Shown piece after piece: positions 494-51,659 of a stretch of 64,000 bases of DNA (position 1 is the first letter of the stretch; the number at the start of each line of letters is the position of its first letter). The notes under the pieces were generated by a model. The model saw nothing but the letters and a program-made list of their open reading frames with translations, was not told where the DNA came from and did no database searches. Source of the stretch: an uncultured Aquificales bacterium (GTDB lineage Bacteria > Thermosulfidibacterota > Thermosulfidibacteria > Thermosulfidibacterales > Thermosulfidibacteraceae); contig CAYVOC010000001.1 of assembly GCA_964453345.1 (NCBI GenBank), positions 1-64,000 of the forward strand. Reading direction: 5' to 3'. The position numbers and the translations under genes are program-made.

Positions 494-1279
494 TTATCTT
501 CCCAGAATCTTTCTGTAGAGTTTTTCCGGCACCACAACGGCGGAGGTTACTGCTACTCCCTGGTTGTTTCTGTTATCGCTGGCAATGATGTAGATCTTGT
601 AGGTTCCCTTTCTTTCGGGGGTGAAGTATCCTTCGAAGTGGCTGATTCTTGAGGCCCATTTGAGTGGAATCTCCTTGATCTTTTTGCCCTTGTAATAGAT
701 TATGGCGGAAACCTTGTAAGCCTTGGCGTCCCACAGGAATCCGGGTCTCACAGGGCACCCGCACATGGGGGTCACGTGGGCACCGATCTTTATTCTGTCT
801 CCCACCTTGTAGAACTCGTGGGGTTTGGGGTTGTAGGGGTGGACTATGAGTCCGTATAGGTTAAAAAGTATTCCGTCGCCTGCTATGTCCCTTCCGGGAA
901 TGAGCCAGGTGGTTTTGACTTCCCTGTGGGTGTTGATTCCTGCTCCTAAGGGGCCAAAGACCTCTATCTCAAGCTTCGTGGGCTTGTCTATGTCGAAGAC
1001 GAACTCCGCCTTTGCAGCACCGCCCTTTGAGAGGATCTTTCCCCTGGTTATGGGTTCCTTGACAAGGATCTTTGTGTTGCCCGTCCCGCCTTCAATGGAG
1101 CCTGTGGCAAGGGTTTTTCCCGTAAAGGCGTCTCTTACAGCAACCTTTAATCCGCCAACTCCGGTCCCCACGAATTTTGCGTCGTTTGCCTTGACCCTGA
1201 CCACAAGCTTCGTGGGAACCGCAAGGCAGGTTGCGGATAACATCATAAAACCTGCAATTAACGCAGTGATTCTTTTCAT
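494..1279 (-). CDS. Secreted conserved hypothetical protein with MCGCP motif
   Basis: ATG at 1279 preceded by GGAGGTG; Sec-type signal MKRITALIAGFMMLSATCLA; beta-rich body; HVTPMCGCP motif. Confidence 0.75.
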   Translation of the reverse strand: MKRITALIAGFMMLSATCLAVPTKLVVRVKANDAKFVGTGVGGLKVAVRDAFTGKTLATGSIEGGTGNTKILVKEPITRGKILSKGGAAKAEFVFDIDKPTKLEIEVFGPLGAGINTHREVKTTWLIPGRDIAGDGILFNLYGLIVHPYNPKPHEFYKVGDRIKIGAHVTPMCGCPVRPGFLWDAKAYKVSAIIYYKGKKIKEIPLKWASRISHFEGYFTPERKGTYKIYIIASDNRNNQGVAVTSAVVVPEKLYRKILGR

Positions 1280-1332
1280 GGTTTCACCTCCCGATATTTT
1301 ACTTTTTTGTAAAGATAACAAGAATGGTATGA

Positions 1333-2298
1333 TTAGTCAATCTCACGAAAGTGCCAGATGCCGTGGAATTTTTCGCATCTGATCAGGCCCTTTGATTCCA
1401 TCAGGTCGAGCCTTCCCAGCACGTCTGAGACCGTTATGTAGATCTCCTGGGGGCCGCGATCGGGGTAGAGGCATTTTATTATGTCGTAGGCCGTGCATCT
1501 TCCCTTCTGCCTTATGCACTGTAGGATGAGACTTTCCTTGTAGGCCATTCTTTTTTCCATCTTCTTTAGTGCTTCATCAAAGTCCCCTTGCTCTTCCCTG
1601 TGGGATGGGAAGTAGGTCTTGAGGCCCAAGGATTTTGCCTTGGCGAGGGAGTCTTTATACAGCAGGCTCGTTTTGAGCCTGTTGCCCTTCTCGTCGGTTT
1701 CCAGCATCGGTATGGGGGTAAGTTCCAGGAAGATGAGGTCTCCGCTGAGGGCCTCGTGCCGGTGCATGAGTATGATGTGCCCGGGGGAGTGTCCTGGGAC
1801 ATGGATTATGCTGAATGTCAGCCTTTCGAACTCGAGGATATCCCCTTCCTGGAGGGGATGGAGCATCTCTTCAGGTATATCTAAACAGAAATTTCTTTCC
1901 CACTTCAGTATTCCTATGAATTTTTCCAGGAAGGCTTCCGGTATGCCGTATTCCCTGATTACGGGAAGCAATTCCGTGTAGAAGGCCACCCTGTCCATCA
2001 CCTTCTTCCAGTCGGCGGGGTGCAGGTATATGGGAGCGCCGGATCTTTCTGCGAATTCCTTTGCCAGGCCGTAGTGATCCGAGTGGCCGTGGGTGAGGAC
2101 TATTCGCTTTATGTCCTTTACGGTCAGGCCGTATCTTTTGAGCCAGTAGTCCCAGGCTTCCCGCGCTTCTTCGGTTGCGACCCCGACATCCACAAGGGTG
2201 ACGGGGTCCTCTGCGATGATGTAGGCGTAGGTGTCCCCTATGGGGTAGGGCGTCGGGATGGAGCACCTTTTTACGCTGCTCTTGTTATCGAGAAGCAT
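1333..2298 (-). CDS. MBL-fold metallo-hydrolase
   Basis: THGHSDH, PGHSPGH, SGD and PSH metal-binding motifs; wHTH-like C-terminus. Confidence 0.85.
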   Translation of the reverse strand: MLLDNKSSVKRCSIPTPYPIGDTYAYIIAEDPVTLVDVGVATEEAREAWDYWLKRYGLTVKDIKRIVLTHGHSDHYGLAKEFAERSGAPIYLHPADWKKVMDRVAFYTELLPVIREYGIPEAFLEKFIGILKWERNFCLDIPEEMLHPLQEGDILEFERLTFSIIHVPGHSPGHIILMHRHEALSGDLIFLELTPIPMLETDEKGNRLKTSLLYKDSLAKAKSLGLKTYFPSHREEQGDFDEALKKMEKRMAYKESLILQCIRQKGRCTAYDIIKCLYPDRGPQEIYITVSDVLGRLDLMESKGLIRCEKFHGIWHFREID

Positions 2299-2320
2299 GG
2301 GTTATATATACTGTCAACAA

Positions 2321-3346
2321 ATGGAAAAGAAAACTGTTCTGGATACCGATCTGGTTGAGTCCCTGCCCCATGCGGTGATTGTTCTTGAGGGAGAGAGGGT
2401 GGTGTATGCCAATCCGGCCGCCTATGAGCTTCTCATGCCTCCCTTCAGGCTTGAGGGGATGGGGGTCAGGGATGTGCTGCCTGTGGAGCTGTGCGATAGG
2501 GTTGCCAGAGGCTCCTGGGGCGGAAAGCTGCTGAACCTTGAGGTGGATGTTGTCCTGAGGGGGGAGGAGAGGCGCTGGGTGGTGGATCTGTTTCCGGTGT
2601 ATGCTGGGGAAGCGGAGTATAGGGGGCTTATTATAAGGGACGAGACCCAGATAAGACTTTTGAGGGAGAAGGAGGAGAAGGAGAGGCTGAGTGTGGCCTG
2701 TGAGGAGCTGGTCAGAATGATCTTTTCCAAGATTCAGCCCTTGGCTGTGGGGATAGTGGGGATATGCAACTACCTTGAGGAACGGGGGGTGGCTCCTGAG
2801 GAGATCTCCCTGATGAAGAAGGAGGCCCTTAGGCTGAACAGGATAGTTGAAGAGGCCATGGAGTTTGCCCTCTCGGGCGGGGCTGTCGGAAGAAGGGTGA
2901 GCCTGTATAAGGTGATTGAGGATGCAATCGGCTTTGTGATGCCTAAGATGGCGGAGAAGGGGATTGGGGTTGAGAGGGATTATCTGCCCGGAATTCCGGA
3001 GGTTGTGGGTGATCCCTTGGAGCTTTTCAAGGCCTTTGTGGAGATCCTGAGGAATGCGGTTGAGTCCTCCCCCGAGGGGGGAACGGTCAGGGTGGTGGTG
3101 GATGTTGATATGAACAGGAGGCTCTGTCCGGGTAAAGGGATGGTGAAGGTGGAGATCGCTGATAAGGGCGTGGAGATTCCGGAAGGGATGAGGGATAAGA
3201 TGCTGCTTCCCTTCGCCACCACCAAAAACGGGCATTTGGGGCTTGGTCTGGCCAGGGCCTACAAGGTGGTGAGGGAGCACGGGGGGGATCTGGAATACAG
3301 AAGGGAAGGTGATGGGAACATCTTTTGTGTTTATCTTCCGCTATGA
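2321..3346 (+). CDS. PAS + HATPase NtrB-like sensor, degenerate (no H-box His)
   Basis: PAS (VYANPAA); N-box EILRNAVES, G1 DKG, F-box PFATTK, G2 GLGL; DHp helix reads LVRMIFSKIQPL with no His; ATG 2321 preferred over the track start at 2258. Confidence 0.8.
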   Translation: MEKKTVLDTDLVESLPHAVIVLEGERVVYANPAAYELLMPPFRLEGMGVRDVLPVELCDRVARGSWGGKLLNLEVDVVLRGEERRWVVDLFPVYAGEAEYRGLIIRDETQIRLLREKEEKERLSVACEELVRMIFSKIQPLAVGIVGICNYLEERGVAPEEISLMKKEALRLNRIVEEAMEFALSGGAVGRRVSLYKVIEDAIGFVMPKMAEKGIGVERDYLPGIPEVVGDPLELFKAFVEILRNAVESSPEGGTVRVVVDVDMNRRLCPGKGMVKVEIADKGVEIPEGMRDKMLLPFATTKNGHLGLGLARAYKVVREHGGDLEYRREGDGNIFCVYLPL

Positions 3347-4566
3347 AGATCCTTGTCGCCGACATAGACTCTGCCACCAGATGGCTTCTGTGTAGGGGCC
3401 TTAAGGGGCATGTTGTTCTGGAGTGCGCCACCCTTGAGGAGGCCCGGTTCCTTTTGAAGAACAGCAGGTTTGATGTGGTCTTCCTTGCCAGAAACTTTCC
3501 CGAGGGGGATGGCTTTGATCTGATAAGGGAGTTTCCCCATCAGAACTTTGTGATCCTCACGGCCAATCCCGCTATTGACAGGGTTTCCGAGATTGTAAAG
3601 GAGAGGGGATGCGGGTATATAAAAAAGCCCCTTGACCTTGCCAGGGTAAGGGAGTTCCTCGAGGGGATTGAGCAGAAAAGCGGTGAGGTCTCCAGCGCCG
3701 ATGATGTTATACTCTACAGCCTTCCGGTTCGGACCGCTGCGGAGAAGATGGAATCCCTTATCAGAGATGGGCTTCCCTTCATGGTGTTTGGTGAAAGGGG
3801 GGTGGGGAAGAGGACCATCCTCAAGTATGTTCTTTTGAGGATGGGCAGGGATTACCGGGAGGTTGAGGGGAGAAGACTCTCGGGTTTGCCGGATGCCCCT
3901 TCTTTTCTGATAGTATCCGGTGTTCAGAGGATGTGTCCGTGCATGCAGGACAGGCTGGCCGATGAGCTTCTGGAGGGGAGGTATCCCTCGGGGGTGGCTA
4001 TAGTTGTGGACGGAGACCCCCTTGGGCTTTTCAGGGAGGGTTTACTGAGCAGGGGCCTTTACGGCATCTTTTCCAAGCGCTCCGTTGAGGTGCCGCCTCT
4101 GAGGGAGAGACGGGAGGATATTCCCCTTCTCGTGGAGCACTTCAGGTCCCGTTGGGAGAGGGAGAGGGGGGTGGGTGCCCCTGTAATTTCCGAGGAGGTC
4201 CTGGAGGTTCTGAAGGGGTGCGGCTGGAGCGGGAACGTTGAACAGCTCAAAGGTCTCCTCTTTTCCATGCTGGACAGGTATAGCTTTGAGGAGAGCCTCG
4301 GTGTGGCTCACCTGCCCGTGGAGATTCTGGCAGAGAAGGAGGGCTTCACCTTCCTTGAGGCCTTGAGGAGAGACGTTAGAAAGCTTCTGGGGATCAGGGA
4401 GGATCTGCACGAGAGGGTTGTGAATGTTGTGGAGAGGGTTCTGCTTGAGGAGGCCCTTGCGAGGACGGAGGGGAACAGGGTGCAGGCCGCCAGGTTTCTT
4501 GGGCTGCACAGGAACACCATAAGGAACAAGATAAAGAAGCTTTTTGGAGGTGAGGTATGGACTTAG
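3343..4566 (+). CDS. NtrC-like REC-AAA+-Fis HTH regulator, degenerate
   Basis: REC-like N-terminus, Walker A GERGVGK, VPPLRERREDIPLLVEHF, WSGNV, HTH GNRVQAARFLGLHRNTIRNKI; ATGA overlap with the kinase stop. Confidence 0.85.
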   Translation: MKILVADIDSATRWLLCRGLKGHVVLECATLEEARFLLKNSRFDVVFLARNFPEGDGFDLIREFPHQNFVILTANPAIDRVSEIVKERGCGYIKKPLDLARVREFLEGIEQKSGEVSSADDVILYSLPVRTAAEKMESLIRDGLPFMVFGERGVGKRTILKYVLLRMGRDYREVEGRRLSGLPDAPSFLIVSGVQRMCPCMQDRLADELLEGRYPSGVAIVVDGDPLGLFREGLLSRGLYGIFSKRSVEVPPLRERREDIPLLVEHFRSRWERERGVGAPVISEEVLEVLKGCGWSGNVEQLKGLLFSMLDRYSFEESLGVAHLPVEILAEKEGFTFLEALRRDVRKLLGIREDLHERVVNVVERVLLEEALARTEGNRVQAARFLGLHRNTIRNKIKKLFGGEVWT

Positions 4567-5105
4567 AGAAACTCGCTGAGCATATAGCGGAGCTTATGGC
4601 GGTGTCTGCCATAACCGCTCCCAAGAGCAGGGGAGAGAACTACGTTGTTGTGGAGGTTGTGACCGGTAAGAAGCTCCGGAAGATTGCGAAGGAGATGATA
4701 GAGCACGGTAAGGAGGTTAACGACCCCTTTTTCGTGAGGGACGGCAACAGCGTTATGGCTTCTCAGGCCATGCTGCTTGTTGGGCTTAAGGACGCCAAAC
4801 CTGTTGGGTTGAACTGCGGCGGATGTGGTTTTGAGAGGTGTATTCTGCCCGAAGAGGTCAGGGAGCTGAGGGATTTTAGGGGTCCCGTGTGCATGCTCAG
4901 GCTTCTGGATATGGGAATAGCCCTGGGTTCTGCCGTGAAGACCGCCTCCATCCATAATGTCGACACCAGGATAATGTATAGGGCCGGGGTTATAGCCAGA
5001 AGGCTCGGGTATATAGATGCGGATGTGGTTATGGCCGTTCCCGTATCCATCTCCGGCAAGAGCGTCTTCTTTGACAGGAAGGTTCCGGATCTCAGTGAGA
5101 GATGA
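4557..5105 (+). CDS. DUF2148-type ferredoxin-domain protein
   Basis: AITAPKSRG, NCGGCGFERC...GPVC, LDMGIALGSAVK, KSVFFDR. Confidence 0.75.
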   Translation: MDLEKLAEHIAELMAVSAITAPKSRGENYVVVEVVTGKKLRKIAKEMIEHGKEVNDPFFVRDGNSVMASQAMLLVGLKDAKPVGLNCGGCGFERCILPEEVRELRDFRGPVCMLRLLDMGIALGSAVKTASIHNVDTRIMYRAGVIARRLGYIDADVVMAVPVSISGKSVFFDRKVPDLSER

Positions 5106-7186
5106 GGATACTGAAGCTTATCCTTTACCTTTTTGGAGCGATTGTAGGGGCGGCGGTATGTGTGGTGCTGTTTCTCTGGTTTAAGTGGAATACCGTGGAT
5201 CTGCCCTCCAAGGAGGAGATTCTTCACTACAGGCCCCCTCTGGTGACGGAGGTTTACGATAGAAACGGAAAACTCATAGGGGAGTTTTTCATTCAGCGAA
5301 GGATATACGTTCCCATAGAGAAGATTCCGGAAAAGTTGAAGCTTGCCTTTCTCGCTGCGGAGGACGCCAGGTTCTATCAGCATGAGGGAATAGATATACC
5401 GAGTATTATAAGAGCCCTGATAGCGGACATAAAAGCGAGAAAGTTTGTCCAGGGGGGGTCCACCATCACTCAGCAGGTGGCCAAGAACATGTTTCTCACC
5501 CCTGAAAAGACCATCTCCCGTAAGATTAAAGAGATGATCCTGGCCATGAAGCTGGAGAAGACCCTTCCCAAGGATAAGATCCTGGAGCTGTATCTGAACA
5601 TCATCTACTTAGGGCATGGTTCCTACGGAGTGGCTGCCGCAGCCCAGACCTACTTCGGCAAGCCCTTGGATAAACTGACCCTGGCCGAGTGTGCGCTTCT
5701 TGCGGCCCTGCCGAGGGCGCCGGGCAAGTATTCCCCCTACATAAACATGGAGGCGGCCTACAAGAGAAGGAACTGGGTTCTCAGGAGGATGCTTGAGGAG
5801 GGGTTTATTACTAAAAAGGAATACAGGGTGGCCGTGGCTGAGGGGATTGTTCTTGCGAGGGAGCGGGTTCGCAGGGTCAACCTTGCACCCTACTTCAACG
5901 AGTTCGTGAGGAGGAGGCTTATACAGAAATACGGCAGGGATGCGGTTTTGAAGGGGGGCTTAAGGGTATACACCACCCTCGACTATGATGCCCAGGTGGC
6001 TGCAGAAGGGGCGTTGCTTAGGGGGCTTTTGAACATAGAGAAGAGGCACGGTTTGATAGACAAGGATCAACCCGTCGATTACAGGATCGGGATCCTTAAA
6101 AGAGGGAAGGGGAGATGGTTCGTTGACTGCGAGGGTAAAAGCTATCCCCTTGAGCTTGGCGGGAACGGGACCCTGCAGCTTGAGGCGGGCGAAAGGGTAA
6201 GGTTCTGGGTCGATAGGGGGAATGTGGCTCATCTGTGGCGCTATCCCTCTATAAACGGCGCCCTGCTTTCGATTGATCTGAACACCATGGGCGTTATCGC
6301 CATGGTGGGCGGATACGACTACAGGATCAGCAAATTCAACAGGGCCTATCAGGCGAAGAGGCAGCCCGGATCCTCCTTCAAGCCCGTTGTCTATACGGCT
6401 GCCGTTGAGTCGGGGTTTACCCCCTTCACCATTGTTCTGGATGCTCCGGTGGTTTATGAGTTCCCTGAACCGAGGATCCGTGATGGGGAGAATGAAACGG
6501 AGGATTTGCTTTCAAGATACTGGGTTCCCAGAAATTATGAGGGAAATTTTCTGGGCCCCATTCCCCTGTGGAGGGCTTTGGCTTTGTCGAGAAACACCGT
6601 CAGCGTGAGGCTGGTTGATCAGATCGGTATAGATAAGGTTATTGATGTGGCGAGAAGGCTTGGGATAACGAGTCCCCTGAGGAGGGATCTATCCATAGCT
6701 CTGGGATCCTCTGAGGTGAGCTTGTGGGAGCTTTTGAGGGCCTACACCGTCTTTGCCAAGGGGGGATATCTGTGCGAACCGGTGTATATAAGGAGGGTGG
6801 AGGATCACGATGGAAGGGTCTTGGAGGAGAATGACAGGCCCATATGCATAGGTGTGCTCGATCCCTCCACGGCTGATGCCATGCTCTACATGCTGAGGAA
6901 GGTGGTTGAGGTGGGGACGGGGAGAAGGGCGAGGAGCCTGGGCAGACCAGCTGCCGGAAAGACCGGGACCACCAACGATTACAGGGATGCGTGGTTTTTC
7001 GGTTTTACCCCCAATGTGGCGACTGGGGTCTATGTGGGCTACGACGATCACAGAAGCATAGGCGATAGGGAGACGGGTGCCAGGGCGGCCCTGCCCATAT
7101 GGCTTGACTATATGAAGCAGGTGGTTAAGAAGTATCCCTTCAAGATGTTTATGCCCTACACCCAGTTTCTGCCTCCGGAGGGATAG
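5102..7186 (+). CDS. mrcA: Penicillin-binding protein 1A (class A PBP)
   Basis: TM anchor; transglycosylase AEDARF, GGSTITQQ, RKIKE; transpeptidase SSFK, SRN, KTG. Confidence 0.92.
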   Translation: MRILKLILYLFGAIVGAAVCVVLFLWFKWNTVDLPSKEEILHYRPPLVTEVYDRNGKLIGEFFIQRRIYVPIEKIPEKLKLAFLAAEDARFYQHEGIDIPSIIRALIADIKARKFVQGGSTITQQVAKNMFLTPEKTISRKIKEMILAMKLEKTLPKDKILELYLNIIYLGHGSYGVAAAAQTYFGKPLDKLTLAECALLAALPRAPGKYSPYINMEAAYKRRNWVLRRMLEEGFITKKEYRVAVAEGIVLARERVRRVNLAPYFNEFVRRRLIQKYGRDAVLKGGLRVYTTLDYDAQVAAEGALLRGLLNIEKRHGLIDKDQPVDYRIGILKRGKGRWFVDCEGKSYPLELGGNGTLQLEAGERVRFWVDRGNVAHLWRYPSINGALLSIDLNTMGVIAMVGGYDYRISKFNRAYQAKRQPGSSFKPVVYTAAVESGFTPFTIVLDAPVVYEFPEPRIRDGENETEDLLSRYWVPRNYEGNFLGPIPLWRALALSRNTVSVRLVDQIGIDKVIDVARRLGITSPLRRDLSIALGSSEVSLWELLRAYTVFAKGGYLCEPVYIRRVEDHDGRVLEENDRPICIGVLDPSTADAMLYMLRKVVEVGTGRRARSLGRPAAGKTGTTNDYRDAWFFGFTPNVATGVYVGYDDHRSIGDRETGARAALPIWLDYMKQVVKKYPFKMFMPYTQFLPPEG

Positions 7187-8206
7187 ATGAACCTGAGGAA
7201 CCTGACACCCGACGAGCTTGAGGCCTTTGTGAGGTCGGAGGGCTTGGAGAGATACAGGGCGAAGCAGCTTTTATACTGGCTTTACAAGAGGCCTGTGGAT
7301 TCCTTTATGGATATGACCAATCTCCCCAAGGATCTGAGGAGGGAATTTGGGGAGAGGTTTGAGCTGTTCTCCCTTGAGTTGCATCAGGAGCTTGTATCCT
7401 CGGATGGGACCAGAAAGCTCCTTTTCAGGACCAAGGATGGAGATTTTGTGGAGTCTGTTTTGATACCCGACGGGGACAGGCTAACCCTGTGCGTTTCGAC
7501 CCAGATAGGGTGCAGGATGGGGTGCAGATTCTGCCTCACGGGCCATCAGGGCTTCAGGAGGAATCTTTCCTGTGCGGAGATAGTTGAGCAGTTCGTTCTC
7601 GCCCAGAGACTTTCGGAAAGAAGGATAACCAACATTGTTATCATGGGCATGGGGGAGCCTTTAGATAACTTTGAGAATACCAAGAGGGCGCTGGTGCTCT
7701 TCACCCATCCGGATGCCCTTGCCGTCTCCTACAGAAGGGTCACCCTATCCACCGTGGGCATAATTCCAAAGCTTGTTGAGCTTTTGGACAGAGGTCCTAA
7801 GGTTGCCGTGTCCGTTTCACTGAACGCTCCGGATCCGGAAAAGAGAAAGGCCATCATGCCCGTAGAGAATAGATACCCCATGATGGAGCTGTTGCGGGTG
7901 CTAAGAGAGAGGGCGTCCAGGGGCAGGAAGCCTCCGACCATGGAGTATGTGCTGCTTCGCGGCTTTAACGACACCCCTGAGGATGCAGAGAAGCTGGTGA
8001 AGCTTTTGAGGGGGATGAGGTGCAAGGTGAATCTGATTCCCTTCAACCCCTGGGAGGGATGCGGGTTTGATAGACCGGATGAGGCCTCCGTTCTGGAGTT
8101 CCAGAGGGTGCTCATAGATGCGGGTTTTTCGGCCTTTGTGAGGAAGAGCCGGGGTTCCGATATTCTTGCCGCCTGTGGTCAGCTGAGGTGGAGGCACACG
8201 GCATGA
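7187..8206 (+). CDS. rlmN: 23S rRNA m2A2503 / tRNA m2A37 radical SAM methyltransferase
   Basis: CVSTQIGCRMGCRFC, MGMGEP, NLIPFNP, DILAACGQL. Confidence 0.95.
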   Translation: MNLRNLTPDELEAFVRSEGLERYRAKQLLYWLYKRPVDSFMDMTNLPKDLRREFGERFELFSLELHQELVSSDGTRKLLFRTKDGDFVESVLIPDGDRLTLCVSTQIGCRMGCRFCLTGHQGFRRNLSCAEIVEQFVLAQRLSERRITNIVIMGMGEPLDNFENTKRALVLFTHPDALAVSYRRVTLSTVGIIPKLVELLDRGPKVAVSVSLNAPDPEKRKAIMPVENRYPMMELLRVLRERASRGRKPPTMEYVLLRGFNDTPEDAEKLVKLLRGMRCKVNLIPFNPWEGCGFDRPDEASVLEFQRVLIDAGFSAFVRKSRGSDILAACGQLRWRHTA

Positions 8207-8397
8207 TAAGGGTTAGGATGGGTGACAGGGTTTTTGAGGTTGATAGAAAAAGGATCAGGCTTGAAGCGCTTTTGAGGGATTTGTGCATCAACCCGGAGGA
8301 TGTGGTTGTGGTTAAAGGGGAAAGGCCCATAACTGAGGATGCGTGGCTTGAGGATGGTGACGAGATAACGGTTTACGAGGTGGTGTCCAGGGGATGA
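8203..8397 (+). CDS. ttuB: ThiS/MoaD-like sulfur carrier (TtuB-like)
   Basis: 64-aa ubiquitin-like pattern ([16 protein letters not shown]) immediately upstream of ttuA; ends in RG rather than GG. Confidence 0.7.
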
Positions 8398-33354: not shown

Positions 33355-35240
33355 TCTTCCTCTTCCAGAAGCTCCCTGAGAAGCTCGGATTCGCTGAAGG
33401 GCTTGAGGAGTATTTTGCAACCGCTTGACCTGATGGCTATCCTCTCGTCGGCCTTCAGCGGAACCGATACGAGGGCTATGCAGCGGTTTCTGAAGTAGGG
33501 GTATAGCTCCATAATTTCGCTGACCAGCTTTGGAAGCGGTATATCTTCTGTGGTTTCGTTTATGATGATCCTGCTGAAGGGTCCCTGCTTTTCCAGCAGT
33601 TTAAAGATCTCCTCTTTGTCCTTTGCGATTGCGGTTTCTGCCCCGCTTCTTTCCAAGAGCATGGCGAGCATCTCTGAAACCACAGGTTCCTGGGAGACTA
33701 TGAGGATCCTTTCGCCTGTGAGCTGCAGCCTTTTCATCATTCTTTCGGATCTGGGGGTGTGGGCGGGAATCTGTATGGTGAATCTGACCCCTGTTGGCTC
33801 AAGGTTTTCCACAATTATCCGGCCGCCTATCTGCTCAATCGCCTCCTTTGCCAAGGACAGCCCCACTCCCGTGCCCTCTCCCTTGGGCTTTGTGGAGAAG
33901 AAGGGTTCGAAGATCTTCTCCATTATCTCCGGCGGGATGGAGGGGCCGTTGTTCTCTATGTCTATGTTTATGTATTCGCCGTCGGAAGAGGTTCTTATCC
34001 TTATGAGCCTGTCCCTCTCCCTTTTGAGGACGGCGTCCTCTGCGTTGTTCACTATGTTGTTCACCGCCTCATACACCGCCGAGGGGATGGTGTATATGCT
34101 GGGTATGTCCGGGTCCAGCTCCAGCTGCAGTTTGATGCTGTGCATCTTGTAGAAGGAAAGCTTCAGCTCCGTTATGCCGGTTATCACCTGGTTTATGTCC
34201 GTTATGGTGTAGTCGGGGAAGGCGTTGGGGGCCAAAGCGTATAGCCCCTTTATTATCGAGGCGCAGCGGTTGGCCTCCTGATGGATCTTTTTCAGAAGCG
34301 CCTTTTTGGTCTTGTCTTTCTCCATATCCAGCAGAATGCCTGCGAAGCCTATGATGGCCGTCAGCGGGTTGTTTATCTCGTGGGCCAAGCCCGCCGTGAT
34401 CCTCTCCATGTTCTTGGCCCTGTCCGCCTGTATGAGCTGCATGTGGTAGCGAACGTGCTTGCTTATCTCCCTTGCTATGTAAATGTAGATGGTTCCGGCG
34501 CCTTCGGTCTTCATCCTGTATACGTTGAGGCTGTATATGAGTCCGGCCCTGCTCTCTATGGCGCTTGCCCTGCCTGTGGCCGCCGCCTTTCTGGTCAGGG
34601 CGCACACGTTTGGGAAGTATTCGTATTCCGCCGCCACCTCCTGGCAGCTTTTGCCTATGAGATCGACTAAGGGGACGCCGAACATGGCCTCCGCTGCAGG
34701 GTTGGCGTCGAGAATGATGTCGTTTTCATCTATCACCCATATTGCCTCATCGACTAAGTTGAGGATGTCGGCCACAATGGAGGGGTTGCTTATTATGCGC
34801 TTTCTTATGATGATCACAGAGAATATCTCGCCGAGCAGCTTCACAAGCGTTTTTGCGTGTTTGGGTTTGCTGTCGCCCCTGCAGGCTATGAAGAGCGATC
34901 CGAAGCACCTTTTGCCCCTGGTTAAAAGGGGATATCCGTGCAGGGTTATGGGGAAGGAGGCGTCGGTGATCTTGAAGGAGACGGGCCTGTTTTCGGATAT
35001 TATCTTCCAGTGCATCTGCTCCATGGCCTCTTCTGCATGCAGGCGCTCGCATATTTCGGGTTCCGCGCAGCAGCAGGAGTGCTTTATCAGCTGTATCTTG
35101 CCCGGCGCCTCCATGTAGAGGAGACAGACCCCTAAGAAGTTTTCATCCTCAAACCTTGAGCATATCTCCTTCAGGACCTCCTCCTCGCTCTGGGCCTTGG
35201 CCAGCTTTGCCTTAAGCCTGTCAATTACCCTTTGTTCCAT
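33351..35240 (-). CDS. Hybrid sensor histidine kinase (GAF-like, PAS, HisKA, HATPase, pseudo-receiver)
   Basis: LAHEINNPL, NIVNNAEDA, FEPFFSTK, GTGVGL; C-terminal REC fold lacking acidic residues. Confidence 0.85.
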   Translation of the reverse strand: MEQRVIDRLKAKLAKAQSEEEVLKEICSRFEDENFLGVCLLYMEAPGKIQLIKHSCCCAEPEICERLHAEEAMEQMHWKIISENRPVSFKITDASFPITLHGYPLLTRGKRCFGSLFIACRGDSKPKHAKTLVKLLGEIFSVIIIRKRIISNPSIVADILNLVDEAIWVIDENDIILDANPAAEAMFGVPLVDLIGKSCQEVAAEYEYFPNVCALTRKAAATGRASAIESRAGLIYSLNVYRMKTEGAGTIYIYIAREISKHVRYHMQLIQADRAKNMERITAGLAHEINNPLTAIIGFAGILLDMEKDKTKKALLKKIHQEANRCASIIKGLYALAPNAFPDYTITDINQVITGITELKLSFYKMHSIKLQLELDPDIPSIYTIPSAVYEAVNNIVNNAEDAVLKRERDRLIRIRTSSDGEYINIDIENNGPSIPPEIMEKIFEPFFSTKPKGEGTGVGLSLAKEAIEQIGGRIIVENLEPTGVRFTIQIPAHTPRSERMMKRLQLTGERILIVSQEPVVSEMLAMLLERSGAETAIAKDKEEIFKLLEKQGPFSRIIINETTEDIPLPKLVSEIMELYPYFRNRCIALVSVPLKADERIAIRSSGCKILLKPFSESELLRELLEEEE

Positions 35241-49226: not shown

Positions 49227-51659
49227 ATGTTTGAGAATTTCACCGAAAGGGCAAGGAAGGCGATAATCATAGCAAGGGGCGAGGCTGAGAGATACCAGCA
49301 CGACACCCTGACGACAGCCCATCTATTAATGGGCATCCTTAAGGAAGCCTCCGGAATGGGGGTCCTGGTCCTTGAGAGGCTGGGGGTGGATCTCGCCTAT
49401 CTGAGGGAGGAGCTGCAGCGCAGGATGCCCTACGGCAGAAGGGGCTTTGTGGTTGGGGCCATACCCTTTGCCCCCGATGCCAAAAAGGTTCTGGAATACG
49501 CTCAAGAAGAGGCTGCCCTTCTGGGGCAGGACTATGTGGGAACGGAACACCTGATTTTGGGAATCATCAGGGAGAGGACGGGCATAGCGGGTAAGCTTCT
49601 CAGAAGGCTGGGGGTGGAGATAGAGGATGCCAGAGAGGCGGTCAGGGAGCTGACCGGTGAGGAGGGTATTCCCAAGAGGAAGGCGAGAAAGACCCCCGCC
49701 CTTGATGAGTTCGGGGTTGATCTCACCAAGCTTGCAAGGGAAGGCAAGTTGGATCCGGTTATAGGAAGGGAGAAGGAGATAGAAAGGGTCATACAGATAC
49801 TTTCCAGGAAGACCAAGAACAATCCTGTCCTCATAGGTGAGCCTGGCGTGGGTAAAACCGCCATAGTTGAGGGGCTTGCCCAGAGGATAGTCAACAGGGA
49901 TGTGCCGGAAGATCTTTTGGATATGAGGGTGATAGCCCTCGATCTTGGCGCCCTTGTCGCCGGAACCAAATACAGGGGTCAGTTTGAGTCAAGAATGAAG
50001 GCCATCATAAAGGAGGCCTCCCAGGGGGACGATATCATTCTCTTTATAGATGAGCTGCACACCCTTGTGGGGGCCGGCGCGGCGGAGGGGTCCATTGATG
50101 CCGCCAACATGCTCAAACCCGCCCTCGCCAGGGGCGATATCAGGGTGATAGGGGCGACCACCCTTTCGGAATACAGAAAGTATATCGAAAAGGACGGTGC
50201 CCTTGAGAGAAGGTTCCAGGTTGTTCTGGTTGAGCCAACTTCCCTTGAGGATACCCTCGAGATACTGAGGGGGTTGAGGCCCAAGTATGAGGAGTATCAC
50301 AGCGTTGTCATAACAGACGAGGCCCTGGAAGCGGCGGTCAAGATGGCGGACAGATACCTTACGGATAAATTTATGCCGGATAAGGCCATAGATCTGCTGG
50401 ATGAGGCCTGTTCCATGGTTCATGTCAAGGCCACCAAAATTCCGCCCCACATAAGGGAGGTGGAGCTGGAGCTTGAGAGCATAGAGGAGCAGAAGCGCAG
50501 GGCCATAGACGATCAGGACTACCAGAGGGCCTCCGATCTCAGGACAAAAGAGGTTGAGGTGCGGCACAGGCTTAAGAAGCTGAGGAAGCAGTGGAGGGAG
50601 GAGCGCGGTCAGGAGAGACCGGTTGTGACCGATGAGGATATCGCCTTTGTGATCTCGAGGATGACCGGCATCCCCCTGCACAGGATAAGCGTTGATGAGG
50701 AAAAGCGCCTTATGATGCTGGAAGAGGAGCTGAAGAAGCATATAGTTGGTCAGGACGAGGCCCTTGAGCAGATAGCCAGGGCCATTCGCAGGGCCAGGGT
50801 GGGCTTGAGCAACACGAAAAAGCCCATAGGCGTCTTCTTCTTCCTCGGTCCCACCGGAGTTGGTAAAACCAGAACGGCGGAGGTTTTGGCGGAGCAGCTC
50901 TTTGGAAGCAGGGATGCCCTCATCAGGATAGATATGTCCGAGTATATGGAGAAGTTCAACGTTTCCAAACTCATAGGCGCACCTCCTGGATACGTGGGCT
51001 ATGAGGAGGGTGGACAGCTGACTGAGGCTGTGAGAAGGCGTCCCTACTCTGTGGTGCTCTTTGACGAGATGGAGAAGGCCCATCCGGATGTCTTCAATAT
51101 GCTGCTTCAAATAATGGACAGCGGAAGGTTGACGGATGCCTTTGGACGAACGGTTGATTTCAGAAACACCATCATAATTATGACCTCAAACATAGGGGCC
51201 AATCTCTTCTTCAAGGGTGTTTCCCTTGGCTTTGGGGATGAGGAGAGCGACTACGAAAGGGTAAAGCAGCAGGTTCTGCAGCTGTTCAAGAAGAGGTTCC
51301 CGCCTGAGTTTGTGAACAGGCTGGATCATGTGGTGGTCTTCAGGCCCCTCAAGGAGAAGGATGTCCTGGCCATTCTGGATATAATGATGAGGGAGATAAG
51401 GGAGCTGTTGAGGGACAAGTCCATGGATATAGAGCTTACGGCAAAGGCTAAGAAGTGGCTTGTTGAAAGGGGGTATGAGCCTCAGTTCGGCGCCAGGCCC
51501 CTGAGGAGGGTTATAGAGAGATTTGTGGTTGATCCTGTTTCGGAGAGAATCTTGAGCGGAGAGTTCATAGAGGGAGATGTGATCCTTGTGGACGTCAGCA
51601 GAAATAACCTCGTGTTCAAGAAGAAGGCTGTCGGCAAAAGGGATAAGGTGGTGGTTTAG
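49227..51659 (+). CDS. clpC: ATP-dependent Clp protease ATPase ClpC
   Basis: Clp-N repeats, [11 protein letters not shown]-like coiled coil, [20 protein letters not shown] loop. Confidence 0.93.

Follow-up and report, generated by a model that had tools for sequence, protein, structure and literature searches.

A coupled NtrB/NtrC-type gene pair lacking both phosphorylation sites is retained under purifying selection in the Thermosulfidibacteraceae

Results

In a 64,000-nucleotide stretch of DNA from an uncultured hot-vent bacterium of the Aquificales (assembly GCA_964453345.1, contig CAYVOC010000001.1, positions 1 to 64,000; hereafter the window), we found a translationally coupled pair of genes that encode a histidine kinase-like protein and a response regulator of the NtrC family, neither of which retains its phosphorylation site. 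The bacterium belongs to the Thermosulfidibacteraceae (hereafter its own family) of the order Thermosulfidibacterales. Because the phosphorylation sites are lost in both proteins while selection keeps both genes intact, the pair may well signal by direct contact. Taken as a whole, the explanation that we consider probable is that an NtrB/NtrC-type two-component system has given rise to a contact-based signalling pair that needs neither phosphorylation nor sigma-54. Its parts differ in strength: a functional pair that is incapable of phosphotransfer and independent of sigma-54 is very likely, and direct contact between the kinase-like protein and the regulator, for which we argue partly by analogy, is an even call. 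The features of the pair are:

2321 to 3346, forward strand: kinase-like gene, an uninterrupted open reading frame (ORF) of 341 codons with its start ATG at 2321
2726 to 2728, forward strand: codon of Ser136, which phmmer aligned with the phospho-acceptor His of ZraS (9jfj)
2891 to 3343, forward strand: GHKL/CA domain, with Asn245, Asp281, the F box and G2 (LGLGL) kept
3343 to 3346, forward strand: 4-nt ATGA start/stop overlap joining the kinase-like and regulator genes, read from the sequence
3343 to 4566, forward strand: regulator gene, an uninterrupted ORF of 407 codons with its start ATG at 3343
3487 to 3489, forward strand: codon of Ala49, at the phospho-Asp position (phmmer alignment to NtrC1 and NtrC4)
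3790 to 3810, forward strand: retained Walker A motif GERGVGK, residues 150-156 (alignment)
3907 to 3924, forward strand: LIVSGV (within LIVSGVQRM), replacing the Walker B motif hhhhDE (alignments)
4399 to 4548, forward strand: Fis-type helix-turn-helix (HTH; Pfam HTH_8, 7.9e-14)

Neither protein retains its phospho-acceptor residue

The kinase-like protein (341 amino acids) has a PAS–DHp–GHKL architecture, with Pfam matches to PAS_4 and HATPase_c (61.5 bits, cut-off 26.4) and no match to HisKA at E<=0.01. When aligned by phmmer with solved structures, its segment IFSKIQPL fell on VAHEIRNPL of ZraS, which places Ser136 opposite the phospho-His, and no His occurs anywhere in the DHp segment (residues 109-183). 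Its AlphaFold2 model (predicted local distance difference test, pLDDT, 79.1) has a normal PAS–DHp–CA fold, with PAS at 9-107, DHp helices at 109-154 and 159-183, and CA at 191-340. The model matches PAS/LOV histidine kinases, and NifL (9qq6_A) and DivL (4q20) rank 10 and 47 among its matches. The GHKL domain retains the Mg-binding N-box Asn245, the G1 Asp281, the F box and G2; the first Asn of the N box is Glu, and the second Gly of G1 is also Glu (D-K-G-V-E vs the expected D-x-G-x-G). Among the five closest orthologues, identity is 47% in CA, 43% in DHp and 31% in PAS. A His does occur elsewhere in the DHp of three orthologous loci (L018, L019 and L022); its position is not conserved, and it was rejected as an alternative acceptor.

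The regulator (407 amino acids) matches Response_reg (35.6 bits, cut-off 30.2), AAA_lid_14 (3e-14) and HTH_8 in Pfam, with no match to Sigma54_activat at E<=0.01. Its segment FLARNFP (within DVVFLARNFP) aligned with LLDLLLP of NtrC1, placing Ala49 opposite the phospho-Asp, and in the AlphaFold2 model (pLDDT 79.6) Ala49 terminates strand beta3 of a (beta-alpha)5 receiver fold (residues 1-115). In the acidic metal-binding pair of the receiver, the first Asp is replaced by Ile8 and Asp9 is retained, as are Thr73 and Lys95. In a control alignment of the 120 best regulator homologues (109 from outside the clade of the window regulator and 11 from within it), the acceptor column holds Asp in 109/109 non-clade homologues and in 0/8 proteins of the degenerate group, which have A, S or I. 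Asp44 and Asp56 were rejected as alternative acceptors, as both lie near beta3 yet off the acceptor position and Asp44 is not conserved.

The determinants of sigma-54 activation are missing as well. A G[AS]F[TS]G[AS] loop is present in 0/11 clade proteins, compared with 91/109 of the others in the control alignment. Set beside the rows of canonical NtrC proteins, the AAA+ core is 25 columns short around GAFTGA (L1) and 11 short before sensor I (L2); in the sister-family type of regulator (see below), 12 columns and 1 column are missing at these places. The segment of the arginine finger reads LSRGLYG (SRGLYGIFS) and that of sensor II reads GNVEQL (WSGNVEQL), so that the arginine finger and the sensor-II Arg are gone. 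Judged from these alignments, the regulator lacks every sigma-54 and hydrolysis determinant, and His-to-Asp transfer at the canonical sites is predicted to be impossible for the pair.

What the regulator retains is unevenly conserved. In the model, the AAA+ core has five strands, and the Walker A residues G150, E151, G155 and K156 are invariant in 14/14 clade members. Mean pairwise identity among the five closest orthologues is 66.4% in the HTH, 52% in the receiver, 40% in the lid and 26.6% in the AAA+ core. The recognition helix residues H389, R390, N391, T392 and I393 (HRNTI) are invariant across the 14 clade members, and so is Trp14 in receiver helix alpha1 (14/14 own- and sister-family members aligned). 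Helix alpha1 of receivers is the usual surface for kinase docking (HK853–RR468 literature; the title of PDB entry 4jav points likewise).

The first-pass annotation of this DNA had described a DHp helix without phospho-His, Ala at the phospho-Asp position, the absence of a GAFTGA loop, Walker B DE, arginine fingers and a sensor-II Arg, and a retained Walker A motif and NtrC-like HTH. All of this holds: the strings that it quoted, including LVRMIFSKIQPL for the DHp helix, are present in the translations, the alignments agree, and the search by alignment for an alternative catalytic His or Asp revealed none. Its description of the kinase-like protein as having a PAS domain with recognisable N, G1, F and G2 boxes is right for PAS, F and G2 and has to be corrected for G1 and for the first N-box Asn.

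In NCBIfam, the pair is nearest to AtoS/ZraS/NtrB and NtrC/NtrX, always far under the curated cut-offs; for the kinase-like protein, the named equivalogs AtoS, ZraS and NtrB scored 100, 80 and 77 bits vs cut-offs of 646, 479 and 240. The best PDB match of the regulator model is Brucella NtrX (5m7n, E 8.5e-23), and FleQ and VpsR were also matched.

The phosphorylation sites were lost after sigma-54 function

Across the 18 genomes sampled from the order, a regulator orthologue is present in 8/9 genomes of the own family and in 5/6 genomes of a sister family (the genomes without it are 71% and 73% complete, respectively), and none was found with the window query in the three genomes of the third family (0/3). 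A word-index search with the kinase-like protein reached three close clusters and missed distant own-family and sister-family kinases, though genome searches found them.

In the own family, the phospho-His column reads S, S, S, T, K, N, N and the phospho-Asp column A, S, S, A, A, S, G; both residues are thus absent in 7/7 pairs. In P0006, the eighth regulator of the own family, Ser occupies the Asp position; the contig is short and does not extend to the kinase gene. At 7/7 own-family loci, the two genes share the ATGA overlap. Pairs of the sister family (L023-L026 and L046) keep the His (in FHQLKGPL), the Asp (in FLDIYLP) and a DDD in 5/5 cases; the two of these five loci that were scanned with Pfam match both HisKA and PF00158. 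In the two families together, GAFTGA and the Walker B DE are absent in 12/12 pairs and the Walker A Lys is present in 12/12; the arginine of FRED is absent from the own family and is Asn in the sister family.

In a maximum-likelihood tree of 24 regulators, the own and sister families form one clade (support 100/98), apart from canonical NtrCs and from the two bacterial enhancer-binding proteins (bEBPs) of the host genome. Own-family regulators form a monophyletic group (100/100), whose stem measures 1.38 changes per site vs 0.58 for the sister family. Root-to-tip distances are ~2.9 in the own family and ~0.8 in the sister family, whose pair evolves ~3.6x slower. Because the own family is monophyletic, a single loss of the Asp on its stem explains the pattern, and the loss of the His maps to the same branch, with no order assigned to the two. 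Because the sister family, with His and Asp in place, already lacks GAFTGA, Walker B and the arginine finger, sigma-54 and ATPase function were lost first, ahead of the separation of the two families. His and Asp went later, from both partners and on a single branch. The own-family sample consists of eight gene-bearing genomes, all of them metagenome-assembled, and because these genomes are mutually kin, the own-family counts are not independent events.

The sister-family pair lies in a different neighbourhood from that of the own family, where a gene for a DUF2148 protein and one for PBP1A follow the regulator gene; DUF2148–PBP1A is not beside it. In one genus, it is directly upstream of a glutamate synthase operon (Pfam on L024; 2 of 5 genomes). 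That operon is split (L024:9533-14110; Glu_synthase with 4Fe-4S, a ferredoxin, Pyr_redox_2 and GATase_2), and the same ORF start as in L024 is seen in L008 and L010. DUF2148 and PBP1A genes do adjoin in the sister family, on other contigs than the pair and after a PurQ-like ORF (L067-L069; 3/3 genomes), and sister-family DUF2148 is 64-67% identical to that of the window. This arrangement hints at an ancestral role of the pair in nitrogen assimilation, with a later relocation.

Both genes are under purifying selection

Reading frames are open at all orthologous loci, including those of all eight own-family genomes that hold the gene. For a strain-level test, we compared window positions 1300-8300 with contigs of four DNA runs that have near-identical sequence; among the public runs listed for this sequence there was no RNA run. 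The differences per gene among the best supported 40 of 172, with the ratio of nonsynonymous to synonymous polymorphism (pN/pS) where available, were:

Kinase-like gene: 5 synonymous, 1 nonsynonymous, pN/pS 0.06
Regulator gene: 10 synonymous, 4 nonsynonymous, pN/pS 0.12
PBP1A gene: 8 synonymous, 3 nonsynonymous, pN/pS 0.11
Gene for a metallo-beta-lactamase (MBL) fold hydrolase: 5 synonymous, 1 nonsynonymous

For the pair jointly, 5/20 differences are nonsynonymous vs a neutral expectation of 76% (pN/pS ~0.10, p=1.7e-6; transitions only, p=1.9e-4). Both genes are under purifying selection. Between species they change faster than their neighbours: for the window vs L018, nonsynonymous divergence (dN, Nei-Gojobori) is 0.36 and 0.37 for the pair vs 0.09 for DUF2148 and 0.14 for PBP1A. 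A metagenome scan for closer relatives turned up no more than two fragments, L064 (identical) and L065 (46%).

These results bear on two earlier proposals. The idea of a repurposed module, independent of phosphorylation and sigma-54, rather than of random decay is upheld by the absence of His or Asp from 7/7 kinases and 8/8 regulators and by the pN/pS of ~0.10; intact orthologues were found only in the sister family, and omega for the window pair is far below 1. Of the specific roles first suggested, a ligand- or ATP-sensing pseudokinase and a repressor or Fis-like protein, the former has to reckon with a kinase-like ATP site that is eroding in some orthologues. The idea that both partners had lost their functions in a coordinated way stands for His and Asp, which map to the same branch. 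It does not stand for sigma-54 and ATPase function, whose loss is earlier and extends to the sister family.

The pair heads a conserved run of coupled genes behind a putative divergent promoter

As first proposed, the uninterrupted, ATGA-coupled ORFs of the pair head a longer coupled run, in which DUF2148, PBP1A and RlmN genes follow:

1333 to 2298, reverse strand: MBL-fold hydrolase gene, divergent, a neighbour conserved in the family, with its start CAT at 2296-2298
2299 to 2320, no strand assigned: 22-nt gap between the divergent starts of the MBL-fold and kinase-like genes, holding TTATATATAC
2302 to 2311, no strand assigned: palindromic TTATATATAC, between the MBL-fold and kinase-like start codons
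4557 to 5105, forward strand: DUF2148 gene, with a 10-nt overlap with the regulator gene
5102 to 7186, forward strand: PBP1A gene, with a 4-nt overlap with the DUF2148 gene
7187 to 8206, forward strand: RlmN gene, directly 3' of the PBP1A gene

The own-family order of a divergent MBL gene, the kinase-like gene, the regulator gene and DUF2148 is seen through DUF2148 at six loci; PBP1A is also present at five of those six, and RlmN was identified only in L027. When the promoter region was inspected by eye, the TTATATATAC element proved to be kept at five orthologous loci and to be a perfect palindrome, GTATATATAC, at three. It is likely a shared bidirectional -10 element. It also looks like a candidate operator, and the mRNAs from its putative promoter would be leaderless or near-leaderless. 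A longer kinase-like protein, starting at 2258 or at the in-frame ATG at 2297, was rejected because the upstream ATG is out of frame in L006 and because the conserved 'YIY' reading is just the TATATATA element read on both strands.

The host genome (1.5 Mb, 64 contigs, 99.9% complete) contains rpoN and two true bEBPs, so the loss of sigma-54 function is specific to the window regulator. A six-frame search of the genome with PF00158 gave four matches, none at 3343-4566; the genome also has 15 HATPase_c and 16 receiver matches. Elsewhere in the window, a 635-codon open frame has an HATPase_c match of 82 bits (33375-34085, reverse strand) and a receiver match of 19.8 bits, below the Pfam cut-off, and it may contain another degenerate receiver. 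A weak Sigma54_activat match (25 bits; 50745-51146, forward strand) lies within an 820-codon open frame whose product is probably a further AAA+ protein rather than an enhancer-binding one. A 275-codon ORF at 494-1321 (reverse strand) has no match in Pfam or NCBIfam.

Discussion

How the pair may work

In the scheme that we propose, a first step, common to the sister family, would have stripped the regulator of its GAFTGA loop, of the acidic pair of Walker B and of its arginine finger, and would thereby have made it an 'atypical' enhancer-binding protein (EBP) of the NtrX/VpsR kind, unable to remodel the sigma-54 polymerase. In a second step, on the own-family stem, the His would have gone from the kinase, and the phospho-Asp along with one of the metal-binding Asp residues from the regulator, whose AAA+ core would also have lost both bEBP-specific insertions; both genes would have come to evolve some three to four times faster. 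Selection would now act on a PAS sensor with its DHp/GHKL scaffold and, in the regulator, on a pseudo-receiver, the Walker A loop and a near-invariant Fis-type HTH, with the proportion of the two proteins presumably fixed through the ATGA overlap. A PAS-controlled dimer of the kinase-like protein may bind the regulator. It could do so on the old DHp–receiver surface, or GHKL/DHp could engage the AAA+ remnant as happens in NifL–NifA. This contact would set the dimer state of the regulator and its binding to DNA at sigma-70 promoters, its own divergent promoter probably among them, and the retained nucleotide pockets (i.e., Walker A and GHKL) may be ligand sites rather than catalytic ones. We infer contact because the pseudo-receiver and its alpha1 Trp are conserved, because the genes are strictly coupled, and because there are precedents in NifL–NifA, in atypical EBPs and in allosteric activation by kinases. 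A complex prediction for the DHp–CA dimer of the kinase-like protein with the receiver domain scored 0.27 (mark 0.32) and was counted neither for nor against binding.

NifL–NifA appears, by analogy, to be the closest working analogue of the pair. In Azotobacter vinelandii, as described in PMC12998190, NifL and NifA are joined by a stoichiometric contact between GHKL/DH and AAA+, without phosphotransfer. Both systems combine a kinase-derived PAS–DH–GHKL protein with a DNA-binding protein of the NtrC family; chains of 9qq6 appeared in the sequence searches of both proteins, and the kinase-like protein has an NCBIfam match to NifL of 1.8e-15. They differ in that NifA, an active sigma-54 ATPase, carries a GAF domain and lacks a receiver, whereas the window regulator has a pseudo-receiver and a dead AAA+ domain, and in that the kinase-like protein has a single PAS and no known link to GlnK, its binding to the partner being inferred.

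Atypical EBPs offer a second comparison. According to passages in PMC6158489 and 10.1101/2023.06.06.543975, these regulators (NtrX, TyrR, HupR, HsfA, PhhR, VpsR and the NtrC of Rhodobacter and Caulobacter) act with sigma-70 and without sigma-54; the NtrY–NtrX pair and R. capsulatus NtrC retain the phosphorylation site, R. capsulatus NtrC binds ATP without hydrolysing it, and VpsR is under the control of cyclic di-GMP (c-di-GMP). Like NtrX of Brucella abortus and other atypical EBPs, the window regulator has a receiver, an AAA+ domain and a Fis-type HTH, lacks the GAFTGA loop and would be expected to work with sigma-70; NtrX is among its NCBIfam matches (4e-20, far under the cut-off). Unlike NtrX and R. 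capsulatus NtrC, which keep the phosphorylation site, it has Ala there and its partner kinase is dead too, and it has lost both bEBP insertions, not just the loop tip, together with Walker B, the arginine finger and sensor II.

Single halves of such a pair are familiar. For aspartate-less receivers, PMC4395418 reports that Ala makes up 9% of the substitutions at the phospho-Asp site, with the second acidic residue poorly kept and the Lys mostly kept. The window receiver resembles the pseudo-receivers of RitR, ChxR, FrzS and FleQ in keeping the fold without the phospho-Asp, with one acidic residue changed (D to I) and T73 and K95 kept. Only 2/20 characterised atypical (i.e., pseudo-receiver) regulators are non-orphan in the count given in a portion of a 2025 review (PMC12632262), whereas the one in the window is translationally coupled to a His-less kinase-like gene. 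The same portion counts 722 of 76,471 HisKA domains (0.9%) as lacking the His. DivL of Caulobacter, in the excerpted description of PMC4211667, senses a phosphorylated, intact response regulator and is a His-less kinase wired to other proteins; it shares with the kinase-like protein a selected DHp/CA scaffold without phospho-acceptor His, but the partner that adjoins the kinase-like protein cannot be phosphorylated. The abstract of PMC4251995 describes allosteric activation of a regulator by its kinase, over and above phosphorylation. Finally, the orthologous pair of the sister family shares the PAS-kinase and REC–AAA–HTH architecture and the lack of GAFTGA, Walker B and the arginine finger, and differs in its kept His, Asp and DDD, its slower evolution and its other neighbourhood.

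Other explanations

That the pair is a decaying relic, with both genes functionless pseudogenes in the making, is extremely unlikely. It would account for the loss of catalytic residues in both proteins, for the weakly conserved AAA+ core and for a between-species dN 2.6-4.2x that of DUF2148 and PBP1A; however, the frames are open in all eight own-family genomes with the gene, despite genomes of ~1.2-1.8 Mb, ATGA coupling holds at 7/7 loci, Walker A and the HTH are invariant, and the strain-level pN/pS of ~0.10 equals that of PBP1A (p=1.7e-6 vs neutrality). Ser/Thr kinase activity has been reported for some His-less kinase-like proteins, and the GHKL domain could accordingly use ATP to phosphorylate Ser136 or another Ser/Thr, or a residue of the regulator. 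This would suit the S, S, S, T at the His position of the four closest orthologues, an HATPase_c match above cut-off, and the retention of the N-box Asn, F box and G2 in 5/7 and of the G1 Asp in 4/7 own-family proteins. We nevertheless regard non-canonical phosphorylation as improbable, because the other 3/7 have Lys or Asn there, 4/4 members of the window's genus lack the first N-box Asn as well as the second G1 Gly, and two orthologues without any ATP-binding box keep both the gene and its coupling.

The two proteins could also have separate functions, the regulator as a constitutive DNA-binder (nucleoid-associated or an autoregulating repressor) and the kinase-like protein, like DivL, with other partners. 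Most characterised pseudo-receiver regulators are indeed kinase-free in the count cited above (PMC12632262, in the portion consulted), DivL provides a precedent (PMC4211667, as excerpted), and the 15 HATPase_c and 16 receiver matches of the genome supply possible partners. Uncoupled functions are nonetheless unlikely in view of the ATGA overlap at 7/7 loci and of dN values that hardly differ between the two genes in any of six genome pairs; moreover, the pseudo-receiver is the second-best conserved domain of the regulator and its alpha1 Trp is invariant in both families, which is hard to explain if it has no partner. Distinctly unlikely, in our estimation, is a small-molecule switch in which a nucleotide or second messenger at the Walker A pocket controls the regulator (cf. 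ATP in R. capsulatus NtrC and c-di-GMP in FleQ and VpsR) and the kinase-like protein is an accessory. The Walker A Lys is kept in 12/12 pairs while all hydrolysis residues are gone, R. capsulatus NtrC and VpsR are precedents, and FleQ and VpsR are among the structural matches, but outside Walker A the AAA+ core shows low conservation (27%), sensor I, sensor II and the arginine finger are lost, and no c-di-GMP-binding motif came to light, no search aimed at one having been made.

Several observations weigh against the contact-based, phosphorylation-independent explanation that we prefer. The strain-level test classified the best supported 40 of 172 differences, and its counts are small. Between species, synonymous divergence (dS) is 1.3-2.1 or undefined (pS 0.61-0.97) and hence saturated; because of this saturation, dN/dS is rough, and it is usable only for the window–L018 comparison (~0.25-0.28, with a dN of 0.36-0.37 and a dS of 1.3-1.5). 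Uneven composition was flagged in five own-family rows of the 24-regulator tree. The AAA+ core is hardly better conserved than the linkers and may, Walker A excepted, be only a spacer. Nor is the kinase-like ATP site general: the G1 Asp is Ser in L021 of the own family, and because the site is lost in some orthologues, a nucleotide-sensing role cannot be general either. In the Thermosulfidibacter-type kinase-like ORFs (L027:6973-8004 and L034:7000-8004), the N, G1 and G2 boxes are gone along with the His. Finally, the H box FHQLKGPL of the sister family has Gln rather than Glu/Asp after the His, and Gly where HisKA usually has Asn/Thr; kinase/phosphatase chemistry may thus already be unusual in the family that serves as the intact comparison.

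The two Thermosulfidibacter-type ORFs remain full-length and ATGA-coupled to their regulator. In L027, the only such locus scanned, the kinase-like ORF is without a Pfam match at 1e-4 and the Response_reg match of the regulator has disappeared. More tentatively, and we think it somewhat unlikely as a whole, the lineage may preserve a natural series from a phosphorelay to a contact switch of the NifL–NifA type. Its stages would be the sister family (His and Asp intact, sigma-54 and ATPase function dead), the window's genus (joint loss of His and Asp, with the nucleotide pockets retained in part) and the Thermosulfidibacter-type genus (a kinase-like partner that Pfam does not recognise, still coupled and intact). 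Along it, the docking surface would become a permanent interface and the pockets would become sensors of energy or ligands, with the pair controlling a conserved cell-envelope and ribosome-modification operon (DUF2148–PBP1A–RlmN) through a palindromic, leaderless, bidirectional promoter.

What the pair means

His-less kinases, aspartate-less receivers, atypical EBPs and a kinase-derived anti-activator are each already known singly. Our literature search for a doubly degenerate kinase/regulator pair found none, with subscription journals and bioRxiv supplements outside its reach, and a search combining Thermosulfidibacter with two-component terms returned none among its top 10 matches. What we did not find in the literature, and what seems new here, is the combination: a coupled cognate pair that lost both phosphorylation sites on the same branch, that is under selection, and that has sister orthologues with intact sites. 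There is also a warning for annotation, as automatic pipelines would probably call the pair a sensor kinase and a sigma-54-dependent regulator.

The 2025 review, in the portion consulted (PMC12632262), calls the on/off switching of pseudo-receivers and His-less kinases a mystery. The window pair turns part of this into a testable question, namely whether a kinase–regulator docking interface can carry a signal without phosphate, and the intact-site orthologues of the sister family are its built-in control. Because the proteins are thermophilic and a cultured genus has an orthologue, the pair should suit biochemistry and structural work. Its main value would lie in making phosphate-free signalling on a two-component scaffold experimentally tractable.

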